Assembly (NCBI GenBank): GCA_964636355.1 | Contig: CAZWRG010000002.1 | Span: 32,746-96,745, forward strand | Reading direction: 5' to 3' | Length of the DNA stretch: 64,000 nt | From: an uncultured Candidatus Saccharibacteria bacterium | GTDB taxonomy: Bacteria; Patescibacteriota; Saccharimonadia; Saccharimonadales; JAGQNK01 | Shown here: positions 37,800-55,392 of the stretch, in pieces | Position numbering within the stretch: position 1 is the stretch's first letter | Layout: the number at the start of each line of letters is the position of its first letter | The notes under the pieces: model-generated | Database searches by the model: none | What the model was told of the DNA's origin: nothing | The model's input: only the letters and a program-made list of their open reading frames with translations | Position numbers and translations under genes: made by a program

Positions 37800-38057
37800 A
37801 TGGGTGATTTCTTATTTGAAGCAAAGCGTTGCCCAGCAACCGGGGAGCCTTGTCAGATATTAGAGGATGAAATTACTGGCTCATCTTTTGAAGTCAATCT
37901 TCGCTTTACTCTCGGTACAGCATGCAGGGAAGGAATGCGTGTAGCAAAAATGACTCAAACAGAACAGATTGAGTGTGGGCTGGAGTATGGTGCGCAGCTA
38001 GAAGCGGAACGCGCATCACGTGCAGCTGCAAAAGAAGCAGGAGTCTACTATGCCTAG
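37800..38057 (+). CDS. 85-aa 4-Cys small protein inserted between rpsL and rpsG
   Basis: ATG lies 2 nt after the rpsL stop, with SD aaggaggg upstream. The stop overlaps the rpsG start by 8 nt. Cys residues at 11, 18, 42 and 59 (CPATGEPC...). Confidence 0.55.
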   Translation: MGDFLFEAKRCPATGEPCQILEDEITGSSFEVNLRFTLGTACREGMRVAKMTQTEQIECGLEYGAQLEAERASRAAAKEAGVYYA

Positions 38058-38529: not shown

Positions 38530-38802
38530 ATGTCTCCTGTATCAGGTGTGCCAGCTAGCTGCCAAGATAGATGTCCTCTGGAAGCCCTTCCCGAGAATCT
38601 GATCGTCGATTACCCATTTACAAAAAGATGTAATGGTCCGGTAATGGTAACGGATACGCCTGTTGATAATGAATTTGACATTGAAAATAGCGGCTACGTA
38701 GAAAGGGTTACACAGGATTCTAGAAAAATAGGAGCCAGAGCGTGTACGAACAATGGAGTTGCAATTTATTTAGATAAAATAGCGTCTGGAGAAGGAAAGT
38801 AA
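38530..38802 (+). CDS. 90-aa 4-Cys small protein inserted between rpsG and fusA
   Basis: ATG lies 3 nt after the rpsG stop. The stop overlaps the fusA start (TAATG). Cys residues at 11, 15, 34 and 72 (CQDRC...). Confidence 0.55.
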
Positions 38803-42631: not shown

Positions 42632-42732
42632 CACTCCTGTAAATTAATCGTGGTGACTAAAAGTCGTCTGAATCGTTCTCTATAACGACCAGGAGATGTT
42701 ACACCACAAATTAGAAGATAGGAATTGGCAAA

Positions 42733-42756
42733 TGGAATTTAGAATTCTAAATTCCA
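42733..42756. repeat. 24-nt perfect palindrome in the rpsJ leader
   Basis: tggaatttagaattctaaattcca is its own reverse complement. Imperfect complementarity extends to ~42712-42780. Confidence 0.9.
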
Positions 42757-42798
42757 CAATCCATATTCCAAATTCTAGGACGACTGAAAGGAGTCAAG

Positions 42799-43152: not shown

Positions 43153-43172
43153 CCTACGATAAGCTCAAACTT

Positions 43173-43208
43173 AAAATCATCCATCCTTAACTGAATGGAT
43201 GATTTTTG
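43173..43208 (+). terminator. strong intrinsic terminator directly after rpsJ
   Basis: aaaatcatccat (43173-43184) pairs with atggatgatttt (43195-43206), 10-nt loop, T-run 43203-43207. Confidence 0.85.
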
Positions 43209-43225
43209 TTTAACATGTTATATTA

Positions 43226-43552
43226 ATGCTAATGGCTAAAAAACAAACATCTAAGCAAAAGAAAAAATCACCAGCTCGGCTGCGGCTAAGAAGCAGGGTT
43301 CGTAAAGAGCCACAAACTCCTGATGGGATTTATTTCTTAAAGCTGGTCATGTATCTAATTTTAGGCAGTTTATGGGTAAAAATTACTGATGGCAATACAG
43401 TTCAACTGCCAATACCAGTTGGGTTGTTGCTTGGTCTGGTATTTGCGGCTCATGATAAAGTTCAGCTCGATAAAAAAATCGGTTTTGCAATTCTACTGGT
43501 TGCCATGCTGGTCGGTTTTTGGGCCCCTTTTGGAATCTACATTGCTATTTAA
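43226..43552 (+). CDS. small membrane protein with Lys/Arg-rich N-terminus, inserted between rpsJ and rplC
   Basis: Three hydrophobic segments. An extended -10 TGtTATATT (43216-43224) lies 7 nt before the second ATG (43232), which may be the real, leaderless start. Confidence 0.55.
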   Translation: MLMAKKQTSKQKKKSPARLRLRSRVRKEPQTPDGIYFLKLVMYLILGSLWVKITDGNTVQLPIPVGLLLGLVFAAHDKVQLDKKIGFAILLVAMLVGFWAPFGIYIAI

Positions 43553-43575
43553 TCGAATGTAAAATAAACATCATA

Positions 43576-43605
43576 TTGACAGATGAGCTGGTTACATGCT
43601 AATCT
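43576..43605 (+). promoter_or_regulatory. candidate promoter for rplC and downstream S10-operon genes
   Basis: TTGACA (43576-43581), N18, TAATCT (43600-43605). Confidence 0.45.
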
Positions 43606-43630
43606 GTAACGGTCTATTAAATTTTCCAGA

Positions 43631-43705
43631 CTTGGTGAATGAGGTAGGTCTACAATTGTTCCACTATAGAACAGGGGTAGAAACCATCCATCACCAAGAA
43701 TTTTT
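43631..43705 (+). terminator. attenuator-like long-range stem plus T5 in the rplC leader
   Basis: cttggtga (43631-43638) pairs with tcaccaag (43691-43698), enclosing ~50 nt, followed by aattttt (T-run 43701-43705). Confidence 0.35.
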
Positions 43706-43749
43706 GTGTCATGGGACCAAAATTCTGGAGTAAAAAAGTAAAGGTTGCT

Positions 43750-44364
43750 ATGAAAGCATTAATTACAAGAAAGGTTGGCATGACCAGTACCATTGGTGAA
43801 GATGGTGTGGTGGCTGCTGTTACCTTGCTTTCCGCTAGTCCTTGCGTCATTACGCAAGTTAAGACCGATGAGATTGACGGCTACACAGCTGTCCAGATCG
43901 GCACCGAAGAGGCTAAAAACATGGGCAAGACTCAGGCTGGTCACTTCAAAAAATCAAAAGTTCAACCGAAGGTTGTTCGCGAAGTCCGAGTTGCTGAGAT
44001 TGACGAATCTTTGAAGGTCGGCGAATCAATCAATGTTGACACATTTGCTACTGGCGATGTTGTGTCAGTAACTGCCAACAGTAAAGGTAAGGGTTGGGCC
44101 GGCACAATTAAACGGCATAATTTTCACCGTCAGCGCAAAACTCATGGTGGAAAAGGAAATACTCGAAAACCAGGTTCAATTGGTTCAATGTATCCGCAGC
44201 ATATCTTAAAAGGTAAAAAGATGGCCGGCCAAATGGGCGCCGAACAAGTTACCGTCCGAAACCTAAAAGTTGCCTTTGTTGATCCCGAGTTAGGCATTAT
44301 TGGAGTTACCGGTGCTGTGCCTGGGCCTCGAAAAGGTATTGTTTTGATCAAGGAGGCCAAATAA
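43750..44364 (+). CDS. rplC: 50S ribosomal protein L3
   Basis: MKALITRKVGMTS...; start trimmed from 43711. GKGWAGTIKRHNF motif present. Confidence 0.95.
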   Translation: MKALITRKVGMTSTIGEDGVVAAVTLLSASPCVITQVKTDEIDGYTAVQIGTEEAKNMGKTQAGHFKKSKVQPKVVREVRVAEIDESLKVGESINVDTFATGDVVSVTANSKGKGWAGTIKRHNFHRQRKTHGGKGNTRKPGSIGSMYPQHILKGKKMAGQMGAEQVTVRNLKVAFVDPELGIIGVTGAVPGPRKGIVLIKEAK

Positions 44365-44468
44365 TGTTTCGTTTCACTCAACATCAGTCTCCAGTCTCCA
44401 GTCTCCAGTCTCTTGCGACTAGTGACAGGCGACTAGCGACTAAAACCGACCAAGGGGAGGTTTTGTAA
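44364..44468 (+). other. rplC-rplD spacer module: heptamer tandem repeats, also a 34-codon ORF bounded by TAATG at both ends
   Basis: 4x CAGTCTC (44385-44412), then CGACTAG-type heptamers (44416-44443). The ATG at 44364 shares A with the rplC TAA. The TAA at 44466-44468 shares A with the rplD ATG. Translation: MFRFTQHQSPVSSLQSLATSDRRLATKTDQGEVL. Confidence 0.6.
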
Positions 44469-45136
44469 TGGCAATAGCTACTTATACTAAAAGCGGTACC
44501 AAAGCCACAACCGCTGCGAAGCTTGATAAAAGCGTCTTTGGGGTTGCTGCTCAGAATCATCAATTATTAAAAAATGCATATCAGGCTTATTTGAATAACG
44601 GTCGCGGTAACTTTGCTCAAACCAAAAAGCGCGGCGAAGTTCGTGGTGGTGGCCGCAAGCCCTGGAAACAAAAAGGCACCGGCCGAGCTCGATTTGGTTC
44701 GATTCGTACTCCAATCTGGCGAGGTGGTGGTATAACTTTTGGCCCAACTGGCAATGAAAACTACAGCCACAAACTGAATGTTTCAGCTAAGCGCCAAGCA
44801 GTTCGACAAGCTCTAAGTCTGGCAGCTGATAAAGGCAAGATCATTGTTATTGAAGATCTAAAGATCAAAGATAACAAAACCGCTGAAGCATCTAAGTTGT
44901 TTAATAAGATTGGCATTAGTAGAAATGCTCTGGTGGTCGTCGCTGATAAGACAGAAGACTTGGTGAAATCAACCAGAAATCTTCAAAATATCAGCTTGGT
45001 CCAGGCTCGCTATCTGAATGTTTTTGACGTGTTAAATGCTGATCACATTGTTTTAACTAACGAGGCTCTAAAAGCTATCAGTGATTGGCTAGGCGCTAAA
45101 ACTGCCGCTGCTAAGAGTAAAGAGGGAGAAAAATAA
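44468..45136 (+). CDS. rplD: 50S ribosomal protein L4
   Basis: [36 protein letters not shown]. Confidence 0.95.
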
Positions 45137-46307: not shown

Positions 46308-46319
46308 GGAGCATATAAG

Positions 46320-46592: not shown

Positions 46593-46594
46593 TA

Positions 46595-46699
46595 ATGGAA
46601 TTTAGAATATCGAATATGGAATTTAGAATGGGCTTCAATGAAGCTATTCCAACTTCTAACTTCCAGCATCTAACTTCTGCGACTGGAAGGAGCATCTAA
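46595..46699 (+). other. rpsS-rplV spacer module: GGAATTTAGAAT repeats and pyrimidine-rich arm, also a 34-codon ORF ending in TAATG
   Basis: ATGGAATTTAGAAT occurs at 46595-46608 and 46616-46629. Central hairpin gcttc-aat-gaagc lies at 46632-46644. The stop TAA (46697-46699) overlaps the rplV ATG. Translation: MEFRISNMEFRMGFNEAIPTSNFQHLTSATGRSI. Confidence 0.6.
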
Positions 46700-47091
46700 T
46701 GGCAGTTAAAGCAATTGCAAAAGGTGTTCGCATGAGCCCACGCAAAGTTGGTGTGGTTGCTGCATTGGTGCGCGGTAAATCAGTGGCTGACGCATTGACA
46801 ATTTTAGAGCACACTCCGCGACGGGCAGCTGAACCAGTTAAAAAGGTCATTGAGAGTGCTCGGGCTAACGCTGATCACAATCATAACTATAAGGCAGATT
46901 CCTTGGTGATCACCTCAATTAGCGTCACTCCGGGCGCTAGAATCAAGCGATATCGTCCAGCGGCTCATGGCCGAGCATTGCCTTTCATGCGCCGAACATC
47001 GCATATTTTTGTAGCGGTTGATGGCGAACAGCGTGCACCAAAGAAGCCAGCTTCTAAGAAGACCGAAGCCAAGAAAGAGGAGGCCAAGTAA
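46699..47091 (+). CDS. rplV: 50S ribosomal protein L22
   Basis: RMSPRKVGVVAALVRGKSVADALTILEHTP. Confidence 0.95.
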   Translation: MAVKAIAKGVRMSPRKVGVVAALVRGKSVADALTILEHTPRRAAEPVKKVIESARANADHNHNYKADSLVITSISVTPGARIKRYRPAAHGRALPFMRRTSHIFVAVDGEQRAPKKPASKKTEAKKEEAK

Positions 47092-47285
47092 TGGGTTTGT
47101 ATGGAAAAGAATTCTGGTCTGCTGAAATGGATGCAGCTTTGGTAAATGAAAAAGTTAACAGCGCATTTAGTCAGACTTTCAATAAGGATGACAGGGGAGA
47201 GCAGCCCGACAGTCTGGCTCTGCCAGCTGACGGCGCGCTGAGAGGGGATGTTCCCCTCTCAGGAACCGAACGGAGTGAGGTGTAG
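47091..47285 (+). CDS. 64-codon ORF inserted between rplV and rpsC (coding status uncertain; contains an 11-bp hairpin)
   Basis: The ATG overlaps the rplV stop (TAATG), and the stop lies 2 nt before the rpsC ATG. Perfect hairpin ctgagagggga-tgt-tcccctctcag at 47238-47262. Confidence 0.4.
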   Translation: MGLYGKEFWSAEMDAALVNEKVNSAFSQTFNKDDRGEQPDSLALPADGALRGDVPLSGTERSEV

Positions 47286-50819: not shown

Positions 50820-50911
50820 AGGAGTAGAAAGTAAAAAGTAGAAAGTTCATAAAGTAATAACTTTGAAACTTTTAACTTGATAACTTTATACTTTCGACTA
50901 AAGGAGAAAAG
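50820..50911 (+). repeat. rpsH-rplF spacer module: AAAGT-repeat arm / ACTTT-repeat arm imperfect hairpin, non-coding
   Basis: gtagaaagtaaaaagtagaaagttcataaagt ... aactttgaaacttttaacttgataactttatactttc. It ends cgactaaaggag before the ATG at 50912. No start codon and no open frame. Confidence 0.7.
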
Positions 50912-52833: not shown

Positions 52834-52856
52834 ACCGCAATTTTAAAATCACTGAT

Positions 52857-52896
52857 AAAAACTGCTCTTTTATGTAGTATACTAGGAGCAGTTTTT
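52857..52896 (+). terminator. stem-loop with T-run between rplO and secY
   Basis: aaaaactgctc (52857-52867) pairs with gagcagttttt (52886-52896), 18-nt loop. Confidence 0.5.
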
Positions 52897-52927
52897 ATGT
52901 TGAACTTGAGGGGAAAATACTGATTTT

Positions 52928-54894: not shown

Positions 54895-54898
54895 AATT

Positions 54899-55006
54899 AT
54901 GAATAATTTTATCAAGTTAAAAGTTAAAAGTGTAAAGGTAAAAGTAGCTCAACTTTCTACTTTCAACTTTCTACTTTCAACTCAAGTTACCGGAGGTAAC
55001 AAATAA
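54899..55006 (+). other. rpmJ-rpsM spacer module: purine-rich / pyrimidine-rich arms, also a 35-codon ORF ending in TAATG
   Basis: Arm aagttaaaagttaaaagtgtaaaggtaaaagtag faces arm aactttctactttcaactttctactttcaactcaagtt. ATG at 54899; the TAA at 55004-55006 overlaps the rpsM ATG. Translation: MNNFIKLKVKSVKVKVAQLSTFNFLLSTQVTGGNK. Confidence 0.6.
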
Positions 55007-55392
55007 TGGCGCGAATATCTGGAGTAACCATTCCGGACAATAAGCAAGTGCAAGTGGCGCTTACTTATGTTTATGGAATCGGCCCCAAGACCGCTGGTGA
55101 TATTTTGACACAAGCCAAAGTTGAGCCAACCGTAAGGACCAAAGAATTAACCGATGCCGAAATTTCACGCATCCAAGATGTTATCAACGAGACGCTAACT
55201 GTAGAAGGTGAACTTCAAAGAATTGTTAGTACTAACATCAAGCGTCTGAAAGACATTGGCAGCTACCGTGGTATGCGCCACAAAGCCAACTTGCCAAGTC
55301 GCGGACAGCGCACCCGAACTAACGGACGATCCCGCCGGGGTCGTAAGGTCGCCGTTGGTGGAGCACAACCTAAATCAGCATCTAAGACATAG
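55006..55392 (+). CDS. rpsM: 30S ribosomal protein S13
   Basis: MARISGVTIPDNKQVQVALTYVYGIG...GSYRGMRH. Confidence 0.97.
   Translation: MARISGVTIPDNKQVQVALTYVYGIGPKTAGDILTQAKVEPTVRTKELTDAEISRIQDVINETLTVEGELQRIVSTNIKRLKDIGSYRGMRHKANLPSRGQRTRTNGRSRRGRKVAVGGAQPKSASKT

Follow-up and report, generated by a model that had tools for sequence, protein, structure and literature searches.

A MIRU-like intercistronic element with a heptamer-periodic hairpin and a candidate relay reading frame in ribosomal-protein operons of Saccharibacteria

In the genome of an uncultured member of the Saccharibacteria (TM7), of which 64 kb (the window) was analysed, the genes encoding ribosomal proteins L3 (rplC) and L4 (rplD) are separated by a 103-nt insert built of 7-nt repeats. 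The usual junction in this operon, as an earlier note made from the sequence alone had indicated, is a TAATG, in which a stop codon overlaps the next start codon; ten such overlaps are present. At rplC-rplD, the stop codon of rplC (TAA) occupies 44362-44364 and the ATG of rplD begins only at 44468. The gap is bridged by one short open reading frame (ORF), here called the relay ORF, with a TAATG at either end. The gene ends, the repeats and the bridging frame were all found where the earlier note had placed them. The features of the junction are as follows.

44350-44356, + strand: original Shine-Dalgarno sequence AAGGAGG, inside the 3' end of rplC and 7 nt upstream of the relay-ORF ATG
44362-44366, + strand: first TAATG; the rplC stop (44362-44364) overlaps the relay-ORF start (44364-44366)
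44364-44468, + strand: relay ORF, 34 codons plus stop (MFRFTQHQSPVSSLQSLATSDRRLATKTDQGEVL), covering the entire insert
44364-44384, + strand: 5' mini-hairpin AUGUU (44364-44368)/AACAU (44380-44384), holding the relay start codon
44385-44412, + strand: 5' arm, four exact CAGTCTC heptamers (Tandem Repeats Finder, 4.0 copies)
44386-44441, + strand: central interrupted hairpin of 19 pairs, in blocks of 1-4 pairs with single mismatches between them and a 6-nt loop
44415-44442, + strand: 3' arm, GCGACTA / GTGACAG / GCGACTA / GCGACTA (Tandem Repeats Finder, 4.0 copies of GCGACTA, 71% matches)
44441-44465, + strand: 3' mini-hairpin UAAAACC/GGUUUUG, enclosing the second Shine-Dalgarno sequence (-9.1 kcal/mol)
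44452-44460, + strand: second Shine-Dalgarno sequence AAGGGGAGG, serving rplD, within the 3' mini-hairpin
44466-44470, + strand: second TAATG; the relay-ORF stop (44466-44468) overlaps the rplD start (44468-44470)

The initiation region that originally belonged to rplD (AAGGAGG) is now inherited by the relay ORF. The two repeat blocks are inverted and about 75% complementary, the 3' arm approximating the reverse complement of the 5' arm, which upholds the partial pairing previously worked out by hand. The 14-mer CAGTCTCCAGTCTC has four matches at ≤ 2 mismatches where 0.19 are expected, and its three exact matches all lie within the array. Only the relay frame is open from TAATG to TAATG; the other two frames hold one and three stops, and those named before, at 44420, 44434 and 44441, are present. 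A scan of the insert for promoters and terminators found none.

Among the matches listed, the window's L4 is at most 66-72% identical to that of GTDB species representatives. Closer relatives (L161-L168, L173 and others; relatives are designated by L-numbers) came by way of protein databases and not from scans of genome or metagenome collections. L161, a 97%-identical strain (L4 99% identical), and L173 (98.3% nucleotide identity) come from sequencing runs separate from that of the window (SRR34148156 and SRR33878428), and carry the same 103-nt insert with three and two substitutions, respectively. Short tandem and inverted repeats can mislead assemblers, so that low-complexity sequence might have given rise to an assembly or chimera artefact. 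However, the flanking genes are intact and in frame, and an artefact is ruled out for practical purposes because the insert, with its 2-3 point differences, was assembled independently from both of these runs.

The rplC-rplD junction was classified in the 67 relatives whose L4 is at least 50% identical to that of the window. A TAATG overlap is present in 47 and another junction of ≤ 10 nt in 15, so that the two genes adjoin directly in 62 of the 67, mostly through the single TAATG that the earlier note had proposed for an empty site. The remaining five carry an insert of 103-115 nt. No junction is of intermediate length and the distribution is bimodal. The nearest outgroup on the L4 tree, L162 (L4 79% identical), is empty (...atcaaggaggccaaaTAATGgcaatt), its rplC end being identical to that of the window and leading through a TAATG directly into rplD. 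The operons of L164, L166, L167 and L168 (L4 75-76%) are fully compact, whereas in L163 (L4 77%) the same junction is filled and in its sister L166 it is empty. On a neighbour-joining tree of L4, filled sites are interleaved with empty ones, and both the window clade and L163 have sisters with an empty site. From this pattern, two gains at rplC-rplD are more parsimonious than four or five precise losses.

Copies of the insert also occur at other junctions, where a conserved head and tail enclose a variable core. In the head (T[AG]ATG-yyTCGyTwCACTCrACATCAG) the AUG overlaps the upstream stop and sits in a 5-bp mini-hairpin. The tail (..CGACsrAAGG(G)GAGkTTGT..TAATG) has its own Shine-Dalgarno sequence in a 4-7-bp mini-hairpin, and its stop overlaps or closely abuts the downstream ATG. 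The core is a long interrupted hairpin with about four 7-nt units per arm, the sequence of the unit varying from copy to copy. Two copies in L001, each about 112 nt long, lie at rplV-rpsC and at rpmC-rpsQ (nhmmer E 1e-34 and 6e-36); their head and tail are those of the window, and their middle differs, being made of CAGnnnA/nnnnCTG units. The copy at rplC-rplD in L163 has the same head and tail and 4+4 heptamers, with GAGTAAT/nnnGCTC units in place of CAGTCTC. When the 34-residue relay peptide was searched against 1.8 billion representative proteins, a 72%-identical ORF of 36 residues was found in two metagenome contigs (L171/L172); it belongs to a copy at rpsC-rplP that shares the CAGTC/GACT core. 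S3 and L16 of these contigs are 78% and 82% identical to those of the window, in which the rpsC-rplP junction is empty (TAAgATG). Three further heptamer-periodic elements are present in L170 (L4 72%). The 5' mini-hairpin is present in five of five aligned copies; in L001 it reads AUGUC/GACAU, with one pair changed on both sides from UA to CG.

No copy with a CAGTCTC core was found elsewhere in the 64-kb window, where four sister modules use other heptamers.

42716-42798, + strand: sister hairpin plus Shine-Dalgarno module in the rpsJ leader, with GGAATTTAGAA units as in the rpsS-rplV copy and a GACU/AGUC mini-hairpin around its Shine-Dalgarno sequence
46593-46698, + strand: sister element at rpsS-rplV; periodic hairpin arms of the GGAATTTAGAA type; relay ORF of 34 codons (46595-46699), with TAATG at its end
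50820-50911, + strand: sister heptamer-periodic hairpin at rpsH-rplF, with AGTAGAA units
54895-55005, + strand: sister element at rpmJ-rpsM, with arms of AAGTTAA x4.6 and TCAACTT x4.9 and a 35-codon relay ORF (54899-55006) ending in TAATG

In the rpmJ-rpsM element the Shine-Dalgarno sequence lies within a GUUACC/GGUAAC mini-hairpin. The corresponding place in the rpsJ leader holds a module of ACAGT units in L001 and no module in L163 or L166. Setting aside the non-periodic family B described next, all 13 elements show their highest self-similarity at lag 7, or at lag 14 and then 7, with fold z-scores of -1.1 to -5.1. Every copy found lies between ribosomal-protein genes and on the coding strand.

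A second dispersed junction element, family B, is non-periodic, with a conserved primary sequence (AAGGGAAAAGAGCAGCC...GCGCGATGAGAAAAACCGyTAGGTTTGTCTCAT) and two hairpins, and has no Rfam match. Its copies are at L007 9865-9985 and 14976-15096, L015 3453-3570, L087 4097-4244, L099 2769-2877 and L006 32-107, and the sites concerned are rplC-rplD (L007, L015), rplX-rplE (L007), rplW-rplB (L087) and rplV-rpsC (L099). In family B, too, the frame is open across the gap, in L087 despite a nested extra hairpin of 36 nt.

The bridging frame is a general property of these inserts. A relay ORF was taken to be one that starts on or ≤ 5 nt from the upstream stop, crosses the gap and stops on or ≤ 15 nt from the downstream ATG. 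By this measure a relay ORF is present in 16 of 17 short inserts, in ten of the 16 with its end exactly on the downstream ATG, and the other frames always hold 1-8 stops. The chance of an open frame, estimated by shuffling, is 0.03-0.35 per element; with 0.35 for every element and 12 independent sequences, the probability of at least 11 open frames is about 7e-5. A frame that is open and well placed after a Shine-Dalgarno sequence might encode a functional micro-protein, in which case the repeats would merely reflect its sequence, and a gene caller did call the equivalent ORFs in L163 and L171/L172. However, the relay peptide has no Pfam match, and Pfam searches with the relay peptides and the larger filler ORFs gave nothing meaningful. 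Relative to L161, two of the three substitutions in the relay ORF are non-synonymous and one is synonymous, against 32 synonymous and four non-synonymous changes in the flanking genes. Copies of the family have only about the first eight residues in common, which are encoded by the conserved head, and the composition of the peptide is that of 7-nt repeats read in three phases. In addition, the family B copies at rplC-rplD in L007 and L015 seem to differ by 1-nt indels that cancel out, so that the peptide is altered and the frame remains open. Neither purifying selection on the amino acid sequence of the relay nor membership of a protein family was found, and a micro-protein is a most improbable explanation.

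The Shine-Dalgarno sequence of the insert is characteristically folded into a hairpin. The 30 nt immediately preceding the downstream ATG have a mean folding energy of -5.6 kcal/mol in 19 elements, compared with -2.7 kcal/mol at 15 native junctions (Mann-Whitney p = 1.5e-4). The sequence of the stem varies among copies, pairing being retained, as in AACAAC/GUUGUU (L001), ACAC/GUGU (L163), GAAACC/GGUUUC (L170) and GCAACUC/GAGUUGC (L001 rpsC-rplP). Across the window, L161, L173 and L172, 97.4% of hairpin cells pair, and the differences are mostly at unpaired positions; for the window and L172 alone the figure is 97%. When subfamilies were aligned together (MAFFT with RNAalifold), the variable cores were misplaced and the 5' mini-hairpin alone was recovered cleanly. 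A sliding-window fold scan of the entire window was uninformative, as coding sequence folds equally well.

Neither the element nor its sisters and relatives were found to match any Rfam 15 family at threshold. The match of Alpha_RBS, the S4 operator upstream of rpsM, to window positions 54934-55038 scored 22.7 bits, below the gathering score of 38. It covers the 3' arm of the rpmJ-rpsM hairpin together with the rpsM start, and much of its score comes from the conserved start of the rpsM coding sequence.

Comparison of near-identical strains shows that the inserts are constrained in their nucleotides and not in their peptide. Between the window and L161 (synonymous divergence 0.109) there are three differences in 103 nt where 11.3 would be expected under neutrality (P = 0.003), and between the window and L173 (synonymous divergence 0.069) three differences in the 209 nt of two elements where 14.4 would be expected (P = 2.5e-4), one of them in the rpsS-rplV sister. 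Synonymous sites thus change four to five times faster than the inserts. Of the three changes in the rplC-rplD insert, two turn a G-C pair into G-U, among them C>T at 44382 in the 5' mini-hairpin of L161, and the third falls at a mismatch.

Replication slippage (a heptamer microsatellite), together with quasi-palindrome template switching, could have produced a neutral spacer that grew in place, with neither mobility nor selection. In bacteria, long simple repeats are reported to be most often heptanucleotide repeats, which have been ascribed to slippage (PMC4679880). Exact tandem units with mirrored arms are what slippage plus template switching should yield, and folding without strand asymmetry (see below) would fit such an origin. 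On the other hand, the array has four units in L161 and L173 as in the window, at synonymous divergences of 0.11 and 0.07, and does not vary freely like a neutral microsatellite; the coupling frame, too, is free of stops in every relative. Nor would a neutral spacer account for the slow rate of change, the conserved head and tail at non-homologous junctions of other genomes, the absence of intermediate junction lengths or the enrichment of open frames. Growth in place is highly improbable.

In the earlier note the spacer was read in either of two ways, as an element inserted into a TAATG junction or as structured sequence in which translatability is maintained for ribosome coupling. Empty sites in relatives, homologous copies elsewhere and the interleaving of filled and empty sites on the L4 tree bear out the first, and the open frames and the nucleotide-level constraint bear out the second; both are supported, as two sides of one thing. 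The family consists of small (about 100-150 nt), non-autonomous elements of Saccharibacteria located at junctions of translationally coupled ribosomal-protein genes. Probably the spacer is one copy of an intercistronic hairpin element, mobile and MIRU-like, whose relay ORF maintains the translational coupling of L4 to L3. Ribosomes that finish L3 would restart at the overlapping AUG, aided by the old rplD Shine-Dalgarno sequence at 44350-44356, and would translate the 34 codons of the relay ORF, melting the central hairpin en route. They would next melt the mini-hairpin that occludes the new Shine-Dalgarno sequence, terminate at the UAA at 44466-44468 and restart on the AUG of rplD. L4 synthesis would in this way stay coupled to that of L3 despite 103 nt of inserted structured RNA, and inserts that lost the relay would be removed by selection. 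What is said here of relay-ORF translation, of reinitiation and of the way the element moves is inferred from sequence.

Several observations weigh against this reading. Taken alone, the rplC-rplD insert has a marginal fold (z -1.5 to -1.7; 6-13 of 100-200 shuffles fold equally well) and an unremarkable open frame, as 31% of dinucleotide shuffles are also open (P = 0.31); fold and frame reach significance only across the whole family of related inserts. Its reverse strand folds better than the sense strand (-37.3 versus -29.2 kcal/mol), and no strand asymmetry was found when sense and antisense folding were compared in 18 elements, so that the hairpin could matter as DNA rather than as mRNA. 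Compensatory covariation within the CAGTC subfamily amounts to 0 pairs changed on both sides. The rpsH-rplF sister is the sole short insert without a start codon and relay ORF, and the rpsJ-leader modules also have no relay ORF. As for mobility, the element has no terminal inverted repeats (the head, TTTCGTTTCACTCAACATCAG, is unrelated to the reverse complement of the tail, and the only inverted repeat is internal), and no transposase was found among the ten large ORFs of the window that were scanned. The sequence read was limited to the window and about 20 kb per relative. Finally, there is no consistent target-site duplication, and the suggestion that insertion duplicated the TAATG is not supported as it stands. 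Several copies do have TAATG or TGATG at both ends, but in the L170 copies the left-hand end is ATGA, against TAATG at the right-hand one, and the right-hand ribosome-binding region is no closer to its own left flank (9.4/18 nt) than to the flanks of other sites (9.2/18 nt). A long duplication is therefore rejected as a general feature. One copy, in L007, has a perfect 21-nt flanking direct repeat.

The insert might instead be a domesticated cis-acting RNA device kept by the host, for instance to set L3:L4 stoichiometry, as an RNase barrier or processing site, or as a ribosomal-protein operator. This possibility overlaps with that of a mobile element, differing only on who benefits, and the relay ORF would be part of the device. 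The strong nucleotide constraint and the systematic placing of the Shine-Dalgarno sequence within a mini-hairpin are in keeping with it, as are the rpsJ-leader modules in two genomes, the overlap of the rpmJ-rpsM module with the sub-threshold Alpha_RBS match and the hairpins at nearly all ribosomal-protein junctions of distant Saccharibacteria (see below). However, close relatives (L162, L164, L166, L168) run the same operon without inserts, and the element type occurs at different junctions in different genomes. The core sequences are wholly different among copies, which speaks against a specific protein-binding operator, and no Rfam family was found at threshold. A device maintained by the host therefore seems unlikely, if well worth keeping in view. 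With a mobile, relay-bearing element as the preferred explanation, some benefit to the host, such as control of stoichiometry or protection of the mRNA, is possible because the inserts are constrained; an essential operator is argued against by their patchy distribution.

In the distant Saccharibacteria L040, L041 and L043 (L4 about 40-45% identical), hairpin spacers of 50-160 nt occupy nearly all ribosomal-protein junctions, some being repeats present in several near-identical copies (five in L041, for example). These spacers have no relay ORFs, and the sequence before the ATG is A/U-rich, without a Shine-Dalgarno sequence.

Because nearly all tolerated insertions in UAAUG-overlap lineages carry a relay ORF and a fresh Shine-Dalgarno sequence, and distant lineages without Shine-Dalgarno sequences or overlaps carry ORF-less hairpins, the pattern suggests that termination-reinitiation is under strong selection in the former. 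Tentatively, and with less than even confidence, it may be proposed that Saccharibacteria carry previously undescribed junction-seeking elements that persist by being translated. Such elements would be cassettes of a heptamer-periodic hairpin, a relay ORF and an occluded Shine-Dalgarno sequence that repeatedly colonise the stop-start overlaps of ribosomal-protein genes, rplC-rplD twice independently, and that, once settled, are kept by purifying selection and so serve as coupling devices. The hypervariable yet 7-periodic, self-complementary core would point to an unusual mode of generation or copying, for which slippage plus hairpin template switching and single-strand DNA transposition next to UAAUG are candidates. 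In the full-text literature searched, such elements were not found described for Saccharibacteria or the candidate phyla radiation.

Other junctions and leaders of the window and its relatives hold further structured or coding sequence. In the rpsJ leader, at 42647-42709, is a motif conserved in many Saccharibacteria, AATCGTGGTGACTAAAAGTCGT...(variable hairpin)...GATGTTACACCAC, with a variant in other lineages, CGAGAACTC...GAGGTTACG. It has no Rfam family at threshold and looks like an undescribed S10-operon leader RNA. The rpsJ-rplC gap (43153-43749, 597 nt) has a terminator-like hairpin, a 108-residue membrane-like ORF (43226-43552) and, upstream of rplC, a strongly structured region (43553-43749); the cargo at this place varies in relatives and includes NUDIX and HAD hydrolases and ORFs of unknown function. 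At rplO-secY, a near-perfect 15-bp hairpin (AAAAACTGCTCCT...) followed by TTTTTATGTT (52855-52900) has the look of an internal terminator or attenuator and not of a periodic element.

Some junctions are filled by longer ORFs. Those of 85 and 90 residues (37800-38057 and 38530-38802) fill rpsL-rpsG and rpsG-fusA, touching both neighbours; they have no Pfam family, periodicity or unusual fold, the fillers of relatives vary in size, and both look like small genes rather than hairpin elements. A 64-residue ORF (47091-47285) fills rplV-rpsC, its start overlapping the rplV stop and its end lying 2 nt before rpsC. Over 196 nt it is identical to L173, against about 13.5 differences predicted from the synonymous rate, and its fold z is -2.7; the same junction holds hairpin elements in L170 and L001. 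At rplB-rpsS the window has a 12-nt spacer (46308-46319), where L173 has a 279-nt insert (L173 2027-2296) with a coupled ORF of 89 residues, and fillers of 230-350 nt are found there in L005, L007, L010, L014, L082, L085, L086, L093 and L170.

The element provides a natural experiment on translational coupling in bacteria of the candidate phyla radiation, which are hard to culture, and a tractable case for the unexplained prevalence of heptamer repeats in bacteria. Relay ORFs of 34-60 codons will be annotated as hypothetical proteins, as several already are. The presence or absence of inserts among near-identical strains could serve as typing markers.

REP/BIME, ERIC and Correia elements are likewise small, hairpin-forming and multi-copy, and lie in transcribed intergenic regions of operons, where they can affect mRNA stability or processing. 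Correia elements have terminal inverted repeats with a TA duplication, and REP sequences a conserved palindrome of about 35 nt, a GTAG head and an associated RAYT transposase. More generally, MITEs of the Correia, ERIC or RUP type are marked by terminal inverted repeats, which the Saccharibacteria element does not have, and by a short target-site duplication of fixed length. Palindromes are conserved in all three groups and bridging ORFs are not systematic, whereas the Saccharibacteria element has a variable core and a frame that is nearly always open. In particular, it has no conserved palindrome like that of REP/BIME, and no transposase domain was found in the ten large ORFs of the window that were scanned. 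Elements derived from IS200/IS605 have sub-terminal hairpins and insert 3' of a fixed 4-5-nt target through TnpA (HUH), without terminal inverted repeats or target duplication. The mini-hairpins at both ends and the TAATG immediately to the left are reminiscent of these, but the L170 copies do not follow a TAATG.

Rickettsia palindromic elements and other repeats joined in frame to genes (PMC3184786) are palindromic mobile elements that survive in translated sequence by way of an open frame; they lie within protein-coding genes and join the protein, whereas the Saccharibacteria element is a separate mini-cistron. Tandem 7-nt intergenic units just upstream of start codons are shared with cyanobacterial STRR and with the TAACTGA repeats of Beggiatoaceae (PMC4679880). 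The latter also occur in ribosomal-protein operons, and slippage or horizontal spread has been proposed as their origin. TAACTGA is one fixed heptamer with stops in three forward frames and no mirrored arms (PMC4679880), whereas in Saccharibacteria complementary arms, an open frame and a heptamer that varies by copy are found. In intergenic small ORFs that open a sequestered ribosome-binding site (for instance PMC8092293), as in bicistronic-design cassettes, translation of a short upstream ORF unfolds the RNA at the ribosome-binding site of the following gene and delivers ribosomes there; these are single, locus-specific or engineered, and the Saccharibacteria element is a dispersed family.

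MIRUs, as summarised in PMC12548453 and PMC3184786, are short (40-100 bp), dispersed, intercistronic elements, co-oriented with the genes, whose small ORF overlaps the flanking stop and start; the arrangement is there taken to keep any effect of the insertion on downstream expression to a minimum. In PMC12548453 (citing Supply et al. 1997), MIRUs are described as mobile, with start codons as insertion sites and an internal ORF whose coupling is at -4 nt. Judged by this description of MIRUs alone, both lie between co-oriented operon genes and in the same orientation, both have an internal ORF that joins the flanking stop and start, and both show filled and empty sites; MIRUs differ in being G+C-rich, in forming variable-number tandem arrays and in belonging to another phylum. 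The Saccharibacteria element is a single unit per site with a long hairpin of 7-nt sub-repeats, a Shine-Dalgarno mini-hairpin and a stable repeat number and, unlike MIRUs, its copies seen so far are all in translation-related operons. We set it out as an intercistronic element with a heptamer-periodic hairpin, predicted to be translated, in a lineage of the candidate phyla radiation, which would extend the MIRU principle, a mobile element hidden by translation, to a second, unrelated phylum. Of the known systems MIRUs are the closest in working, and the element belongs to a MIRU-like functional class rather than to the tandem-array form of the mycobacterial family.

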